Shown here: positions 12,546-23,479 of the stretch, in pieces
How positions within the stretch are numbered: position 1 is the first letter of the stretch
Layout of the letters: every line of letters starts with the position of its first letter
Notes under the pieces: generated by a model
The model's input: the letters and a program-made list of their open reading frames with translations, nothing else
Told to the model about the DNA's origin: nothing
The model's database searches: none
Made by a program: the position numbers and the translations under genes
Source of the DNA: a virus
Taxonomy: Duplodnaviria; Heunggongvirae; Uroviricota; Caudoviricetes
Strand: one strand, 5' to 3'
Length of the DNA stretch: 30,932 nt
IMG/VR virus record: IMGVR_UViG_2529293142_000025
Coordinates: 1-30,932 of that record

Positions 12546-12698
12546 TTATTCAGATTTGCGCAGTAAAGGCCGGAGTACGGCCAGCGCCATCGCCACCAGC
12601 ACACCATCTGCCAGCACCGACATCAGCCGTCCGGTGAAATCCACCACCACTACCAGAAACAGCAGGATGGCAGCCAGCACAAGGCGCGCACTTTTCAC
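12546..12698 (-). CDS. small hydrophobic protein (50 aa, two predicted TM segments)
   Basis: GTG start with GGAG SD 8 nt upstream, overlapping the stop of the TerB-like gene; VKSARLVLAAILLFLVVVVDF...; below the ORF-track size cutoff. Confidence 0.3.
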   Translation of the reverse strand: MKSARLVLAAILLFLVVVVDFTGRLMSVLADGVLVAMALAVLRPLLRKSE

Positions 12699-13120
12699 AG
12701 GTACTGCTCCAGCGGTAACTGCAGCGCCTGAGCAATTTTCTTGAGCTGTGCTTCTTCATCCGGACCAATGCCATCCTGGTCAGCGATATCCAGACACAGG
12801 CACAGCACATTAACTGCATCATCAGTACCGGCAACATCAGCCAGCTGACGAAGGGCTTCGGCATTGGCAGAACGCGGCGACGCTTCATAACGGGCGCGGA
12901 TATTTGCACTCATTTGTGCAATCTCACCGGAGAACGGCGCAAAGGCAGGAAGTGCTGCAATGGTTTTCTCCAGTACCGCGACTTCTTTCGCGTCACAGGT
13001 GTCGTCAGCATATGCAATGGAATACGCGCCCCAGACGGTCGCCTCCACTGCGTCGCGGTTCTCCATCTTCTTCACTTCGGTAATGGCCTTGCGGGTTTTC
13101 TTTTTGAAAATACCAAACAT
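12695..13120 (-). CDS. TerB-like domain protein (cargo gene)
   Basis: 141 aa; two repeats of the pattern hydrophobic-A-x-D-[DG]-x4-E (AYADDTCDAKE and DIADQDGIGPDEE) as in TerB/DjlA-N helical domains; memory-based. Confidence 0.45.
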   Translation of the reverse strand: MFGIFKKKTRKAITEVKKMENRDAVEATVWGAYSIAYADDTCDAKEVAVLEKTIAALPAFAPFSGEIAQMSANIRARYEASPRSANAEALRQLADVAGTDDAVNVLCLCLDIADQDGIGPDEEAQLKKIAQALQLPLEQYL

Positions 13121-13800: not shown

Positions 13801-13875
<75 letters not shown>

Positions 13876-13878
13876 ATA

Positions 13879-13954
<76 letters not shown>

Positions 13955-14202
13955 ATTGGCTCTTCAGGGGAGCGATATCACCGCTCAAAGAAGAGTTCCC
14001 CCTCAGAGCCGTTTTCGATGATACGATTTAATACTCCAATCGCAACAACACCTTGCGTCAAGTTATGTAAATTTATTTATATGTTTTTATTTTATGTGAA
14101 TAATTCACTTTCACTTAAAATATAAATGACAATATATAAACAAATTTATTTTGAAGGCGATTATTAAATGTCGTTTCTGATATCACGCCCCAGAAACAAC
14201 AA

Positions 14203-14222
14203 AACCCGCTCAATGGCGGGTT
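14203..14222 (-). terminator. terminator after roi-like gene
   Basis: minus-strand hairpin AACCCGCCATTGAGCGGGTT followed by T-rich tract. Confidence 0.4.
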
Positions 14223-14317
14223 CTGGTAAAGTTCATGCGCTTGATTCGCCTCGCGATACAGCTTTGCGAAGCGTACCGGAATTGAAGCAGTTTATGGCTA
14301 AAATTGCAAGAACTTTT

Positions 14318-14929
14318 TTAAAGCTGCATCAGCCTTTCCACCAGTTTATCTCTGCGAACAACAAACCAACCATTGGCTCTCGCCAGTTCCAGCCATGACT
14401 CAAGGGAAATAACAATATCATCATCCCGCAACTGAATTGTGGAAACAGTGACACCGCCTCGCTGATAACAGAGAACTCGCGTGTCGTAACTTTTCTGGCA
14501 TGAAGCTGGCGCTGACAGATCCTTTTGTCTGAAATAGCAGTCTTCCAGTTTTTCGAACACATCCCACGCCTGATCGGTTTCGAGCATTTTGGCGTGACGG
14601 GCTGCGCCTCGTTCTGTCCAGAGGATAAGGGAGCGGGCTTTCGGGGAAATTTGTAACCCTCTTAAAGATGGTTGCAAATTTTGTGAGTTACTTAAAGTAA
14701 CCCGCAAATTTTGTGAGTAGTTTAAAGCTACCCGCAATTCTTTAAGGTCATTACCAACAACTTTGAAAAAGTGTTTCCCTTCAACGAAGCGTGCTTTGTT
14801 CTCATGATGATTCTGGCGAATACGCACCGGCTCAGTGCCGTAAAGCTGCGCCAAAAGTTCGGTGGTAATAACAGGAATCTGGTTATGGGTGATAGGGGAG
14901 AGAGTTTCAACAGAAATTTGAGTTGTCAT
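14318..14929 (-). CDS. antirepressor-like DNA-binding protein (KilA-N/ORF6N-type, Roi-like)
   Basis: 203 aa; N-terminal ...LLAQLYGTEPVRIRQNHHENKARFVEGKHFFKVVGNDLKEL and ...SLILWTERGAARHAKMLETDQAWDVFEKLE resemble the two halves of the KilA-N/ORF6N fold; first gene after the late promoter. Confidence 0.5.
   Translation of the reverse strand: MTTQISVETLSPITHNQIPVITTELLAQLYGTEPVRIRQNHHENKARFVEGKHFFKVVGNDLKELRVALNYSQNLRVTLSNSQNLQPSLRGLQISPKARSLILWTERGAARHAKMLETDQAWDVFEKLEDCYFRQKDLSAPASCQKSYDTRVLCYQRGGVTVSTIQLRDDDIVISLESWLELARANGWFVVRRDKLVERLMQL
14671..14733. repeat. about 30 bp tandem direct repeat (2.5 copies) inside the roi-like gene
   Basis: GGTTGCAAATTTTGTGAGTTACTTAAAGTAACC / CGCAAATTTTGTGAGTAGTTTAAAGCTACCC / GCAATTCTTTAAGG on plus strand. 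Confidence 0.7.
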
Positions 14930-15090
14930 AATGACGCCCTCTGGTGGTTTCTTAATAACTCACCACCGACGACGCCAATCGTCTGGTGGTGAACTGTGCA
15001 GGGTTGGCGTAACCGGGAAACCGACCGGCGCGGATCTCTCCGCCCCCACACAGCCCACCATAATTCAGATGTGCGCGTGCATACGACAAT

Positions 15091-15112
15091 AAAAAACACG
15101 CTCGCGGCGTGT
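15091..15112 (-). terminator. tR-prime-like terminator downstream of late promoter
   Basis: minus-strand hairpin ACACGCCGCGAGCGTGT followed by TTTTTTATT. Confidence 0.5.
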
Positions 15113-15173
15113 ATCTGTCGCGGTCTCTATCCAGGACGCCAATCCCGACGCCAGATTTTGCTGGCGCGTGAGG

Positions 15174-15203
15174 AATATAGCCCCGGATAACAGATTGAGT
15201 CAA
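15174..15203 (-). promoter_or_regulatory. late promoter (pR-prime-like), Q-dependent antitermination region
   Basis: minus strand TTGACT, 18 nt spacer, TATATT; the -35 overlaps the Q stop codon, as in lambda. Confidence 0.5.
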
Positions 15204-15754
15204 CAGACGGTTTTTAGATCCCCGGAAGAGAATGCATCACGCATCGGCAGATAGAGCATAAACTCTGCCATTTTCAACCACGCATCTATGCGATTACGGC
15301 ACGTGGCGTAACACCACTCAGGGTGTGAACCATTCAGCAATTCAGCCATTTTTCGCTTAGTCATCCCCCTCCCTTCATATCGTTGCCGGAGGATACAAAT
15401 CAATCCTGGGTGTTCTGCCAGCACTTCACTAATCACCCGATCAATGCATAACGCCTCTGAATCGGTACAATGTACCAGCCAGCTCTTTTGCTTGCCGTTA
15501 ATCATATCCCGCAAAAAAGCCTCAAGTTCAGGTTTGTCCAGACCTGCTTTTTTCATCCTCCGGAGCGCCTCGTTAATTGCCGTTTTTGTCAGCTTTTTAG
15601 AGGCCAGCAACTGGTTGAACATATTTCCCGTCTTACCGCCGCCAATATACGACCAGCGCCCCCACATGCGCAGTTTTCCCTGAATCCAGACACTTTCCAA
15701 CGTGGTGAGACGAAGGTGTTCCCCGCTTTTGCCTGTATTTGTTGGGTAAATCAT
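15200..15754 (-). CDS. late-gene antiterminator Q-like protein
   Basis: 184 aa from ATG 15752-15754; position at end of nin region directly before the late promoter; the N-terminal extension in the track ORF overlaps the upstream gene. Confidence 0.55.
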   Translation of the reverse strand: MIYPTNTGKSGEHLRLTTLESVWIQGKLRMWGRWSYIGGGKTGNMFNQLLASKKLTKTAINEALRRMKKAGLDKPELEAFLRDMINGKQKSWLVHCTDSEALCIDRVISEVLAEHPGLICILRQRYEGRGMTKRKMAELLNGSHPEWCYATCRNRIDAWLKMAEFMLYLPMRDAFSSGDLKTVC

Positions 15755-16041
15755 AAATAACCTTCCTTTCTCCAGATTTCTTGTGTGCGAAAAACACCTT
15801 CTGCATGCATCAGGCGCAATTCTTCTTTGGTGTAATCGCTGGTTTTTACCCGCCCGTCGATTAAATCGTGGCACGAGCTACAGGCAATCGCTGCCTGCAT
15901 ATCGTGTGGTTTTGTCGCTGTTCCGCACGTCCCCGCCAGCCTGTAATGCGCCAGCACAGATGTTTCGGGATTGTGATTGCAGTAGCCAGGAATTCTGACG
16001 GTGCACATCTGCCCCCGCGCCGCTTTACGTAAATCCACCAT
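15751..16041 (-). CDS. Cys-rich nin-region protein (YbcO/DUF1364-like)
   Basis: 96 aa with several Cys/His (CTVRIPGYCNH...CSSCHDL); stop overlaps Q start. Confidence 0.45.
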   Translation of the reverse strand: MVDLRKAARGQMCTVRIPGYCNHNPETSVLAHYRLAGTCGTATKPHDMQAAIACSSCHDLIDGRVKTSDYTKEELRLMHAEGVFRTQEIWRKEGYL

Positions 16042-20229: not shown

Positions 20230-20891
20230 ACAAAACCAGCTGCCTTCCGGCGTTCATACTCCCGTTTCAGCAACTCAATTGGTGTTGGCCCCGACGGGCG
20301 TTTTGGTGCTGCCAGTTGCCGCCGTACGGGCGGAACGCTGAAGCCGTCACCAACATGCTTTGCCCATTTCGCTAGTTGCCGTTCTGCAAGTCGTTTTAAC
20401 TCCCCTTCGGTCATCTGGCGCTCAATCCCCTTTGAACGCATCTCGAGGCAAATGTGATACAGCACAGGCTGAGACCACGGGTATTTATCGCTTCCGTCGT
20501 ATCGCCAGGACTCATTGCGCCAGCGGCGGTACTCCTTCATCACAACATCAACCGTCAGACCGAATGGATTGGCTCCGCTTTCCGAAATCAGTGCCACAAA
20601 CTCAGCCAGGTCCGGAGGCCATGTTTCACCCGTCCGGCAGCGGTCCATGCACTGGCGGCAGACCTGTCGGATTTGCTGCTCAGTCATCGCGCCAATCTGT
20701 GCAATCCAGAGCTTCGAAGGTGCGGCCCCGTTCTTCTGGGTCCAGCGGTTCGAATAAATCTCCCCCATGAGTTCCCACAGCTTCCAGGCAGTTTCCGTCG
20801 TTGATAAATCCGTTTTCACGTTCCCACTGCTCACGTGCTGCCCGAATTTCCTGAACTGCCCGTGATGCGGTGCCACCTGGCGCGGCTGCAT
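20226..20891 (-). CDS. replication protein P-like (helicase loader)
   Basis: 221 aa; central and C-terminal similarity to lambda P (..YPWSQPVLYH.. vs ..YPWKSNAHYW..); SD AAGGGGGTGA before ATG 20889-20891. Confidence 0.6.
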   Translation of the reverse strand: MQPRQVAPHHGQFRKFGQHVSSGNVKTDLSTTETAWKLWELMGEIYSNRWTQKNGAAPSKLWIAQIGAMTEQQIRQVCRQCMDRCRTGETWPPDLAEFVALISESGANPFGLTVDVVMKEYRRWRNESWRYDGSDKYPWSQPVLYHICLEMRSKGIERQMTEGELKRLAERQLAKWAKHVGDGFSVPPVRRQLAAPKRPSGPTPIELLKREYERRKAAGFV

Positions 20892-21726
20892 GACTCACCC
20901 CCTTGCTGACTGGTTTAACCTGCGCCCTGACGTGATTTACGTGACGGGCGAATTTCTGCTCCCACTGAACCTGCGTGAACACTTTGCCCTCATCGCTCCA
21001 GTAATCCCGGAAGGCGGCAAGTTCAGCAGGTGTAAATTCCGGCTCCGGCAGAGCCACTCCCCACAGTGCAGCCCGTCGTCGGAAATCCGGCGACGGATTC
21101 CAGCCGGCGGTCATCGGAAATTTTCCGATGGGTTCGCTCAGGCCTTCCAGGTAATCAGGTTCCGTTGCCTGCAACGGCAAACCATTCGACTCACTGACCG
21201 GAGCACTCTCGCGCACGCGCGCGTTATGTGTGGGGTTTAATTCTTTATCTGTATCTTTATCTGTCGTGACTCGTCGTGACATGTCGTGACATATGCGTGA
21301 CTCGTCGCGCGCCCCCTCATTCTGTTTTCGTAATTTTTCCCTCTCGCGCTGCGCTCTCTTGCGCTCTGCCGGGGATTTCGCGGTTTGTGAAACGTTGCCA
21401 TTGTCCTCTTTCAGTACCTGGCGTTTTTCCCATCCACTGATCAAATCTCCATCAAGTACCCGCCCCTGCATTGCCTGTAAAATTGAATCAATTACTTCTT
21501 CCGTCACATCAAGCGCACTTGCTAAATCTTCCGCTGTGACATCAATGTGACCACGTAGTGACACGCCGTGACATGTCGTGACATTTCGTGACGCGCTCAC
21601 CAGAAGGTGGATATACACAGCCATCACTGTTGCGATTGGCTGTCCTGACACCCTGGAAATTGTTCGCCACTTAGGATCGTTTGGCATGTCATGCCATAAT
21701 CTGAGCCAGGCGTTAGCCATACTCAC
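20680..21726 (-). CDS. replication initiator O-like protein with DnaT-like C-terminal domain; 3-prime end uncertain
   Basis: N-terminal HTH/replisome-organizer-like region; FPMTAGWNPSPDFRRRAALWGVALPEPEFTPAELAAFRDYWSDEGKVFTQVQWEQKFAR matches the DnaT C-terminal region from memory; contains two iteron arrays; the ORF overlaps the P-like gene by 212 nt. Confidence 0.55.
   Translation of the reverse strand: MSMANAWLRLWHDMPNDPKWRTISRVSGQPIATVMAVYIHLLVSASRNVTTCHGVSLRGHIDVTAEDLASALDVTEEVIDSILQAMQGRVLDGDLISGWEKRQVLKEDNGNVSQTAKSPAERKRAQREREKLRKQNEGARDESRICHDMSRRVTTDKDTDKELNPTHNARVRESAPVSESNGLPLQATEPDYLEGLSEPIGKFPMTAGWNPSPDFRRRAALWGVALPEPEFTPAELAAFRDYWSDEGKVFTQVQWEQKFARHVNHVRAQVKPVSKGVSHAAAPGGTASRAVQEIRAAREQWERENGFINDGNCLEAVGTHGGDLFEPLDPEERGRTFEALDCTDWRDD
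21233..21301. repeat. iteron array 1 with adjacent AT-rich tract (candidate replication origin)
   Basis: AT-rich TTCTTTATCTGTATCTTTATCTG followed by 4 direct repeats GTCGTGAC with 10 bp periodicity. Confidence 0.55.
21545..21592. repeat. iteron array 2
   Basis: 4-5 direct repeats of nTnGTGAC with 10 bp periodicity, same orientation as array 1. Confidence 0.5.
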
Positions 21727-21791: not shown

Positions 21792-22217
21792 TCAATGCAC
21801 AACCACAATATTTCCCGCCGGACCACCACGATTCATCTGATTGAAACCAGCGATCGCCACTGCGACAAAATCATCAGCGTCTCTCACCAGTCGTTCCCGC
21901 GTCTCCACCAGCTCCCGAAAATAGGCTGAACTGTGGCTGCGCATTCGGGCCACCAGCAGAGGTGGCATTGCTGTTTCGATCGCTGGTAACAATGCCTGAA
22001 TTTTTTTAACCGCATCAGGGGTGTCTTTCTCCACCCAGCGGAAAATTTTCTGAGTATTGCGAGCCAGGGCTTCCGGATGGCTGTCGTCATACAGTTCTGG
22101 GAACGTCATACCCAGTTCAAAATAAGCCCTGGTTATTTCAGCTGCCGGAACTTTTTCACCGTCCGGATGCGCCCAGGCATTCATCGCCATGCGGATGTGT
22201 TCATGCTTGATTTTCAT
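21792..22217 (-). CDS. ydaT: YdaT-like protein (CII-position gene of Rac-type immunity region)
   Basis: 141 aa beginning MKIKHEHI; position immediately after the cro-like gene. Confidence 0.45.
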   Translation of the reverse strand: MKIKHEHIRMAMNAWAHPDGEKVPAAEITRAYFELGMTFPELYDDSHPEALARNTQKIFRWVEKDTPDAVKKIQALLPAIETAMPPLLVARMRSHSSAYFRELVETRERLVRDADDFVAVAIAGFNQMNRGGPAGNIVVVH

Positions 22218-22482
22218 GAATCAAGCTCCTAGAAAGTGGTTGTGTTAACGTTTTGGTATCTTCCAGCTCGGGCCAAATATTCATCCAATCAAAAGGCCTT
22301 AGTTGCTGACGTGTAACTTCACCATTACTGGCTCGCTCAATAAGGACACATAACGATGCCCCTAACACTTGACCTTTACTCAATGCCTTTCTTAGATAAC
22401 CGATGCTGGTACCACACTCGCATGCAAACATACGCTGTTCATCTGACGAAAGAGAATTGAGAAATATTCTTAATTCTTCCAT
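22201..22482 (-). CDS. ydaS: YdaS-like Cro-type HTH regulator
   Basis: 93 aa with HTH-like CGTSIGYLRKALSKGQ; divergent from repressor gene. Confidence 0.5.
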   Translation of the reverse strand: MEELRIFLNSLSSDEQRMFACECGTSIGYLRKALSKGQVLGASLCVLIERASNGEVTRQQLRPFDWMNIWPELEDTKTLTQPLSRSLIHENQA

Positions 22483-23001: not shown

Positions 23002-23045
23002 CTCACCAAACAACTAGTCACCAGTTAAGACACCGCAAAAAATTT

Positions 23046-23080
23046 ACCCATAGGTATTTACTTTTTAAATACCTATGGGT
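23046..23080 (+). terminator. perfect 15 bp inverted repeat downstream of racR (terminator or protein-binding palindrome)
   Basis: ACCCATAGGTATTTA-CTTTT-TAAATACCTATGGGT followed by T-rich ATCCTTCTTTTC. Confidence 0.35.
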
Positions 23081-23260
23081 ATCCTTCTTTTCATACCAAC
23101 TCACCCCGCTCCACAGAATGCAGGGCAATACTTCGAGTTACCAGGCAGTGGTCAGGGGTTAAGTAGCCAGCCCGAGGCATACGAACATGACGGCAGTTGT
23201 TGATTGATACAAAGCGCAGTAGATAAAACGTTCCGCCACCCGGCGTTAAGGGGAAAAAAG

Positions 23261-23479
23261 ATGGTTGGTGAAGATCTGGTTGTTATTAACGGTCAATTGT
23301 GCAGCAAAGATGTGGCAGCCATGCTTATTAGCAAGGTTCTTCCAACTGTGCTGGAGGTCATTGCAGAAAAAGTAAAGGCTGGTCGTCCAGACAAGGAAGT
23401 TGAAGAGGCGGCAAAAACAGTTGTTCATGCCGCTACAGAAGCAATTATTTTGAAGAGCCTAGTTTCGCCCAAGCCTTAA
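23261..23479 (+). CDS. small hypothetical protein (YdaF/YdaG-position)
   Basis: 72 aa from ATG 23261 with AAGGGG SD. Confidence 0.35.
   Translation: MVGEDLVVINGQLCSKDVAAMLISKVLPTVLEVIAEKVKAGRPDKEVEEAAKTVVHAATEAIILKSLVSPKP

Follow-up and report, generated by a model that had tools for sequence, protein, structure and literature searches.

We analysed a 30,932-nt stretch of DNA from a tailed phage of the Caudoviricetes (IMG/VR record IMGVR_UViG_2529293142_000025, positions 1 to 30,932; hereafter the window), focusing on a short tandem repeat inside an ORF6N-family antirepressor gene of the AnrP/Ant-like type. The gene is an open reading frame (ORF) of 203 aa on the minus strand (14318..14929). 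A preliminary description, made from the sequence alone, had placed 30-bp repeats at 14671-14733. Tandem Repeats Finder (TRF) agreed with this to within a few bases, calling an array at 14674-14737 with a period of 30, 2.1 copies, 85% matches, no indels and a score of 86. By a rough estimate (ours, not the output of a tool), about 5e-4 occurrences of 25/30 matches at any offset and period would be expected in 31 kb. Translated on the minus strand, the array gives ...LRVALNYSQN LRVTLSNSQN LQPSLRG..., which is the in-frame, decapeptide-like duplication that had been written down before. The coding-strand reading is ...DLKELRVALNYSQNLRVTLSNSQNLQPSLRGLQISPKARS..., and the ORF stays intact throughout.

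The array consists of three units, and no other part of the gene is as rich in AT (GC 0.30). Unit A (14711..14737, TTGTGAGTAGTTTAAAGCTACCCGCAA on the plus strand), found by pattern match, encodes LRVALNYSQ, and unit B (14681..14707, TTGTGAGTTACTTAAAGTAACCCGCAA on the plus strand), found as an inverted repeat, encodes LRVTLSNSQ. Unit C (14647..14681, AAATTTGTAACCCTCTTAAAGATGGTTGCAAATTT), also found as an inverted repeat, encodes LQPSLRGLQI; it is a third copy that is missing from the TRF call because it is too diverged, and it extends the array to about 14647-14741. Every unit is itself an inverted repeat. The arms 14675-14693/14695-14713 are 84% complementary, the 17-nt arms of unit C (14647-14663/14665-14681) are 88% complementary with a score of 12, and further dyads lie at the AAATTT junctions between units. 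Three palindromes in the window score at least 11, as compared with 0.25 expected from Markov simulations, and the array holds the second (unit C) and third strongest of the whole window. The strongest, at 23045-23081, has 16-bp perfect arms (TACCCATAGGTATTTA-CTTTT-TAAATACCTATGGGTA) and lies between an ORF at 22201..22482 (-) and another at 23204..23479 (+), a position at which it might serve the immunity region as an operator or as a bidirectional terminator.

When folded as RNA, the plus strand of the array forms three consecutive hairpins (unit C giving hairpin 1, unit B hairpin 2 and unit A hairpin 3) at -34.1 kcal/mol (z -4.1). The coding strand reaches -29.2 kcal/mol (z -3.8), and the array folded as single-stranded DNA gives a z of -3.1. 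The two copies called by TRF differ at five positions, all of them in the inner stem (GTTAC...GTAAC vs GTAGT...GCTAC on the plus strand). Four of these five differences compensate each other in two pairs; the remaining one results in a G.T pair. Each junction between units also contains, in frame, A AAT TTG (14700-14712 (-), coding strand CAA AAT TTG), which formally fits the slippery pattern X XXY YYZ; a hairpin comes immediately after it, and a TAA within the loop ends the -1 frame. We dropped programmed -1 frameshifting as a candidate, as there is no spacer, and the motif is probably coincidental because it is not conserved in FK-type or Firmicutes homologs.

The identity of the host gene required some care, as the preliminary description had called it roi/antirepressor-like. 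The second half of that label was right. The protein matches Pfam ORF6N (PF10543) over aa 12-115 with 69.8 bits (cut-off 27.8, E 2.5e-19) and PHROG 2379, anti-repressor, with an E value of 6e-92 (203 residues against a 187-position profile), and identical E. coli proteins are annotated as 'ORF6N domain-containing protein'. The first half was wrong: Roi has an Rha N-terminal domain and a KilAC domain (ANT, PF03374), and the window gene is not Roi because Pfam gives ORF6N alone, with no KilAC/ANT or Rha domain found in the protein. Stx2 phage 1717 carries both genes side by side, with its annotated Roi (Rha plus KilAC/ANT) next to a separate gene, annotated Ant, in which a near-identical N-terminal module is joined to P22_AR_C. 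E. coli genomes join the same N-terminal module to KilAC or other C-termini, the modular architecture of ORF6N proteins. From these sequence matches, we consider the window gene to be an ORF6N antirepressor of the AnrP/Ant type. Its antirepressor activity is putative and is supported by annotation and context; in Gifsy-1, expression of the possibly orthologous AnrP raises antQ operon transcripts (PMC4825925).

The number of units differs among relatives of the window protein. Most proteins that are 88–98% identical to it over the whole length have 193 aa, exactly ten residues fewer, and carry either LRVALNY...SQNLQPS or LRVTLSN...SQNLQPS: unit A alone is found in P0035, P0036, P0044 and P0075, and unit B alone in P0039 and P0117. 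A separate 8-aa deletion removes LQPSLRGL (unit C) from homologs of 185 or 195 aa. At the other extreme, the Ant protein of phage 1717 has one more unit than the window protein, so that 193-aa, 203-aa and 10-aa-longer forms occur among close alleles, with one to four units per allele and three in the window. The N-terminal module was matched in 936 of 5426 complete E. coli genomes, in forms of 374, 404 and 434 bp. Across 82 related viral loci, the segment from GKHFF to LILWTERG spans 38, 40, 42, 48, 50, 58 or 68 aa. Among 150 representatives at 50% identity, the distance between the two motifs is mostly 26–33 residues; about 25 of the 150 are expanded to 38–59 residues by several types of repeat unit, including a 14-aa unit in P0123 and P0128. 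The homologs thus do not share one identical segment, and the earlier proposal of a repeat-length variable linker is borne out by lengths that differ in exact 10-aa steps. With a period of 30 and no indels, the head-to-tail units of 3n bases keep the frame, as in an in-frame variable-number tandem repeat (VNTR) or minisatellite. The proposal of a recent duplication fared less well for the two copies in the window, which are not a fresh duplication because they differ by five clustered, mostly compensatory changes and because other alleles have one of them without the other; an old duplication or unequal recombination between alleles is the likelier origin. Recent duplication does describe the extra unit of phage 1717, which is fresh: its 30 bases are 100% identical to the neighbouring copy of unit B.

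At the protein level, the repeat had been described as an insertion between the two halves of the predicted DNA-binding domain, and both Pfam and structure prediction agree with a position inside it. The ORF6N match occupies aa 12-115 on an 86-position profile, and the insertion is therefore about 20 aa. AlphaFold (with an 86-sequence alignment) places the repeat between a helix at 59-71 and a strand at 100-104. For the window protein, the mean pLDDT (predicted local distance difference test) was 68.7, with 79–87 for the ORF6N core and 35–38 for residues 72-91. For P0297, a 185-aa homolog with a single palindromic unit, the mean was 80.4 and the equivalent loop reached 74–79. Comparing structures with and without the repeat, as had been proposed, thus gave a loop that is predicted to be disordered in the window protein and ordered in the single-unit homolog. 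We found no solved structure related by sequence to the window protein. The ORF6N domain looks winged-helix-like, with the loop apparently at the 'wing' position; the repeat is predicted to encode a disordered surface loop, and the added residues are probably neutral for folding.

To place the units in the wider family, we collected the DNA of the N-terminal domain from IMG/VR and GenBank phages. This yielded an enterobacterial-type set of 111 distinct domain sequences with 66 different loop peptides (classes) and an independent Firmicutes-type set with 27 loop classes, or about 90 loop variants together. In nearly every enterobacterial-type variant, this same codon position has one or more palindromes, built from quite different stems such as AACCTCT/AGAGGTT, GAGAGTAGC/ACTACTCTC, GACTAGT/ACGAGTC, GAGTGTC/GACACTC, CAGACTGAC/GTCAGTCAG and CACAGAGTA/TACTCTGTG. 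The top palindrome of the domain coding sequence (about 400 nt) is centred in the variable core, which makes up 15% of the length, in 54 of the 66 enterobacterial-type classes (binomial P of 4e-33, which is optimistic as the classes are related). The same loop holds the top palindrome in 20 of the 27 Firmicutes-type classes (binomial P of 1e-10) and in 9/10 distant phage genes, a set that includes genes from Acinetobacter, Yersinia (with 14-bp perfect arms), Salmonella S135, Lactococcus bIL285 (orf6), Clostridium CDMH1, Paenibacillus and Bacillus phages. That related genes of such distant phages have a palindrome at the same position suggests a constraint at the DNA or RNA level.

The stems also covary. 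Across 46 distinct 35-nt units, standard pairs occupied 72.3% of cells, compared with 50.6% after shuffling (0/500 shuffles as high), and the covariation score was 0.547, compared with 0.195 for shuffled units (0/500) and 0.04–0.16 when the partner was slid. Several stem pairs never break, yet use two to four pair types. We then kept the amino acids fixed and drew synonymous codons at random: in 37/66 enterobacterial-type classes the observed palindrome was reached in at most 1% of 300 trials (median z of 3.75), and permuting the order of codons gave the same picture. In the enterobacterial clade, codon choice is therefore non-random and tuned to the palindrome. Codon-level support was weaker in the Firmicutes-type set, with p ≤ 0.05 in 13/27 classes and p ≤ 0.01 in 6/27. 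A single peptide illustrates the effect: LRVALNYSQ is encoded with Arg CGG and Ser TCA in E. coli and with Arg AGA and Ser TCT in the Salmonella type, a synonymous double change that turns two non-Watson-Crick positions into pairs. Separately, one and the same inner cassette, for example GTAGCTTTAAACTAC (VALNY), occurs with outer stems that differ between L240/L241, L207 and L117 and the window units, either TTGCGG...CTCACAA (LR..SQ) or CACAGA...TCTGTG (HR..SV), so that the palindrome looks modular, its outer stem covarying independently of its inner stem. In the searchable literature, we found no description of a repeat or palindrome within the coding sequence of ORF6N or antirepressor genes, and a paper on 24B_1/d_ant proved irrelevant. 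Length variation of this sort is ordinary; it is the covarying, conserved intragenic palindrome of ORF6N genes for which no earlier description was found.

The overall description that we favour, with a probability of roughly 0.6, is that a short palindromic, hairpin-forming module in the variable-loop codons of ORF6N genes has expanded in frame to a copy number that varies, giving the repeat. The ORF6N family would carry this module in a tolerant wing loop, and in the E. coli/Stx (Shiga toxin) clade slipped-strand mispairing or unequal recombination, acting at the junction CTCACAAAATTTGCGGGT that the units share, would have raised its number without loss of frame. The complementarity of the arms may be kept by hairpin-templated template switching, by selection for a DNA or RNA stem-loop, or by both, while for the protein the units would merely lengthen a tolerant surface loop. 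Template switching, which creates and maintains hairpins (PMC8794818), would explain the clustered compensatory differences between units; selection on a stem-loop would account better for a palindrome that persists at one codon position across phyla.

Several points weigh against this description. The mechanism of gain and loss is inferred from the comparison of alleles. A purely mutational origin fits poorly with persistence at one codon position across phyla. The classes in the binomial tests are phylogenetically related, so their P values overstate independence, and two register offsets of the alignment used for pairing (A6) were chosen after the palindromes had been seen, which favours pairing somewhat. 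The palindrome is weak or absent in phage SaltyDalty (L245) and in several FK-type and Firmicutes classes, and in the Firmicutes-type set recoding was significant at p ≤ 0.05 in the 13 classes only.

Two known phenomena resemble the expanded module in part. As in in-frame coding VNTRs, the units are head-to-tail multiples of three bases, their copy number varies among near-identical alleles, and they lie in a disordered, tolerant region. Here, however, each unit is palindromic, diverged units differ by compensatory changes, and the gene family as a whole conserves the single-unit form as a palindrome. Quasipalindrome correction has reportedly been described by Ripley. Template-switch hairpins (Monttinen & Loytynoja 2022, PMC8794818) share with the array differences of several bases that lie in clusters and leave the arms complementary; in this way, perfect stems form without stepwise intermediates, as described mainly for RNA genes and non-coding DNA (PMC8794818), whereas here the process would act in a protein-coding loop and would alter two peptide segments at once. 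Taken as a repeat, the array is nothing unusual: the gene is common in prophages, and the polymorphism changes the length of a loop that tolerates it. About 1/6 of complete E. coli genomes and many Stx phages have the repeat, which might be used for typing and may also cause mis-assembly. The broader point is that one codon position of a widespread family of phage regulators keeps a palindrome whose sequence changes and whose symmetry is preserved. If selected, the palindrome would be a new cis element, embedded in coding sequence, that takes part in controlling the induction of prophages, Shiga-toxin phages and Gifsy-type prophages among them. If the palindrome maintains itself through template switching, it would show clearly, in nature, how mutation driven by hairpins can shape a loop of a protein, and would caution that covariation alone is no proof of function.

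The genes and RNAs around the antirepressor gene bear on the first of these two options. Upstream and on the same strand lies a Q-like antiterminator gene (15200..15874 (-); Pfam DUF1133, E 4e-107, and Phage_antitermQ), followed by an isrK-type Hfq-binding small RNA (15091-15167 (-); Rfam RF01394, 75.5 bits), an overlapping c4-a1b1 target element (15128-15180 (-); RF03163, 50.5 bits) and a C4-type antisense RNA (14982..15065 (-); RF01695, 66.7 bits with a gathering score of 45, E 4e-12); the isrK and c4-a1b1 matches are likewise above their gathering scores. Pattern searches on the same strand added a promoter-like TTGACT-18-TATATT (15203..15174) and a terminator-like hairpin near isrK (15112..15096), and a second terminator-like hairpin of 10 pairs followed by a T-rich tail lies downstream of the antirepressor gene (14200..14225 (-)). 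With C4 RNA, a1b1 target and isrK all upstream on one strand, the locus is a module of the P1 immI / Gifsy-1 type, and its order (Q-like gene, isrK, C4-type RNA, antirepressor) matches both P1 immI (c4 RNA-icd-ant) and the Gifsy-1 locus antQ-isrK-orf45-anrP, in which the antirepressor-like AnrP is translationally controlled by IsrK (PMC4825925). In those systems, control is described at the 5' leader, in contrast to the position of the array; a term search of PMC4825925 returned no mention of a palindrome within the antirepressor coding sequence.

A reading that we hold tentatively, below even odds, is that the palindromes are a functional cis-acting nucleic-acid element in the coding sequence and that the array is its multi-hairpin version. 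Such an element might take the form of a stem-loop in DNA, mRNA or antisense RNA, and its role might be to restrict the expression of the antirepressor or to set its timing; it might also be a structure recognised by the ORF6N protein. The conserved position and the covarying stems across Proteobacteria- and Firmicutes-type phages are consistent with this, as are the codon choice that fits the palindrome and the strong, regular three-hairpin fold (z -4.1). Antirepressor genes are also typically under tight RNA-based control, and C4 and isrK RNAs precede the window gene. The more specific signals expected of an RNA element were absent at the array: no Rfam 15 family matched at its gathering score (the only overlaps were rivX, at 21.6 bits as against the 100 required, and CbSR14, at 18.6 bits as against 172), and no promoter- or terminator-like consensus was found there. 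Neither did one strand stand out, as the preference in RNA stability was not significant (p 0.08, 34 windows) and the counts of G.T and A.C mismatches were 15 vs 25, from events that are not independent. In addition, the length and strength of the stems vary widely, and the palindrome is missing in some homologs.

Extended to the whole family, the same reading would have ORF6N genes of both Gram-negative and Gram-positive phages carrying a new cis element in their wing-loop codons, either as a regulator of the antirepressor or as a built-in generator of diversity; we regard this as a speculative possibility that is somewhat less probable than its opposite. As a regulator, the element could be an RNA processing or pausing signal or a structure recognised by the ORF6N protein. 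As a diversity generator, hairpin-templated correction could rewrite both arms, and with them two peptide segments of the putative specificity loop, in one step, with slippage multiplying the module. The three-hairpin array of the window would then be an expanded allele of that element.

It is unlikely that the units form an operator-like array, tolerated within the ORF, to which a dimeric protein binds, be it the antirepressor or some other regulator of the phage. Dyad symmetry often runs through the centre of the units (TTTAAA / CTTTAAG), their 30-bp spacing is about three helical turns, there is no strand bias, the GC content is the lowest of the gene, and ORF6N is a predicted DNA-binding, winged-helix-like domain, all of which fit such an array. 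However, the inner half-sites differ among the three units (GTAGC, GTTAC, AACCATC), with many others in the homologs, and conservation of symmetry alone with varying half-sites is unlike the operators of one protein. The same 15-mer, for which a search elsewhere in the prophage had been proposed, was not found again in the window beyond chance, and the same held for the units and half-sites searched as 14-, 15- and 27-mers. In 5426 E. coli genomes, the 86-bp repeat region was found at 940 places in 710 genomes, and among the 40 matches listed of those 940, 38 were in antirepressor genes and 2 had no annotation, which also argues against a set of operators. The earlier suggestion of a binding array thus keeps one part, as palindromic, covarying units are a feature at the nucleic-acid level, one that the earlier description had missed, and loses the other, as partner sites were lacking in the window and no site for integration host factor (IHF) lay nearby.

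Three more specific candidates were considered and set aside. First, the listed E. coli matches show that the unit is not a dispersed element because they sit in antirepressor genes (38 of the 40 listed), and with no other copy in the window we ruled out a mobile palindrome like the Rickettsia palindromic elements (RPEs), miniature inverted-repeat transposable elements (MITEs) or repetitive extragenic palindromes (REPs). RPEs, reportedly described by Ogata and colleagues in 2000, are said to be elements of 100–150 bp that lie in frame in protein genes and are dispersed over many unrelated genes and intergenic sites. The array resembles them as palindromic DNA tolerated in frame at permissive positions of the protein surface and differs in its 30-bp unit and its location in antirepressor genes, as in those listed matches. 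Second, the Roi protein of HK022 is said to bind within the roi gene, at a site adjacent to one for IHF, in work reportedly by Clerget and Boccard in 1996. Both are antirepressor-like regulatory genes of the nin/Q region with a possible DNA site in their own ORF, but HK022 Roi has Rha and KilAC domains where the window protein has ORF6N only. The IHF consensus WATCARNNNNTTR was not found with up to one mismatch in 14247-15187, that is, within several hundred bases of the array, and we therefore rejected an intragenic operator of the Roi/IHF type. Third, a role as a replication origin was judged improbable, as the window gene is an ORF6N antirepressor and not a replication initiator.

It is very improbable that the repeat is an ordinary duplicated peptide linker whose palindromy is a by-product of its amino acids: a codon for a hydrophobic residue is complementary to one for a hydrophilic residue, and a loop in which the two kinds alternate is partly palindromic at no cost, and recoded sequences still score 4–5.5 while about half of the Firmicutes-type classes are not significant, but in the enterobacterial-type classes recoding rarely reaches the observed score, synonymous double changes such as that in LRVALNYSQ restore pairing, and covariation is far above the shuffled and slid controls.

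The origin comparison deserves a separate word. In lambda-type phages, the ori iterons lie in the linker-coding part of the O gene as direct repeats with internal dyad symmetry, and their number varies among lambdoid phages. The array is similar in that direct repeats with internal dyads lie inside the gene of a DNA-binding protein, and differs in that the host gene is an antirepressor gene and the unit sequences differ between copies; neither an initiator nor an AT-rich unwinding element was identified for the array. Elsewhere in the window, tandem repeats of about 10 bp occur at 21242-21307 and 21558-21592 (GTCGTGACTC x4.4; GTGACATGTC x3.5; TCTTTATCTGTA x1.9), inside an ORF with a DnaT DNA-binding domain (20680..21726 (-)). 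These look like candidate origin iterons in a replication gene, a different gene from the one that holds the array, and would be the sort of binding array inside an ORF that the preliminary description had suggested.

A few minor observations concern the flanks and relatives of the antirepressor gene. Two tRNA genes (13804-13954 (-); Rfam 65.6 and 73.8 bits) lie downstream of it and are followed by a TerB-like ORF (12695..13120 (-)), a stretch that resembles the tRNA/moron region downstream of Q in Stx-type lambdoid prophages. Among phage records, only PP818812.1 ('Actinobacillus phage vB_Apl-pPE4', L002) matches the whole gene, with 83% identity over 612 nt. Its layout is of the E. coli type, with an equivalent series of upstream genes and a downstream TerB gene, and its Actinobacillus host label is unexpected for an E. 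coli-like lambdoid module. One homolog, P0052 (237 aa), has a 44-aa N-terminal extension that runs through the region matching the C4 RNA (window 14930-15030) and probably reflects an over-extended start call.

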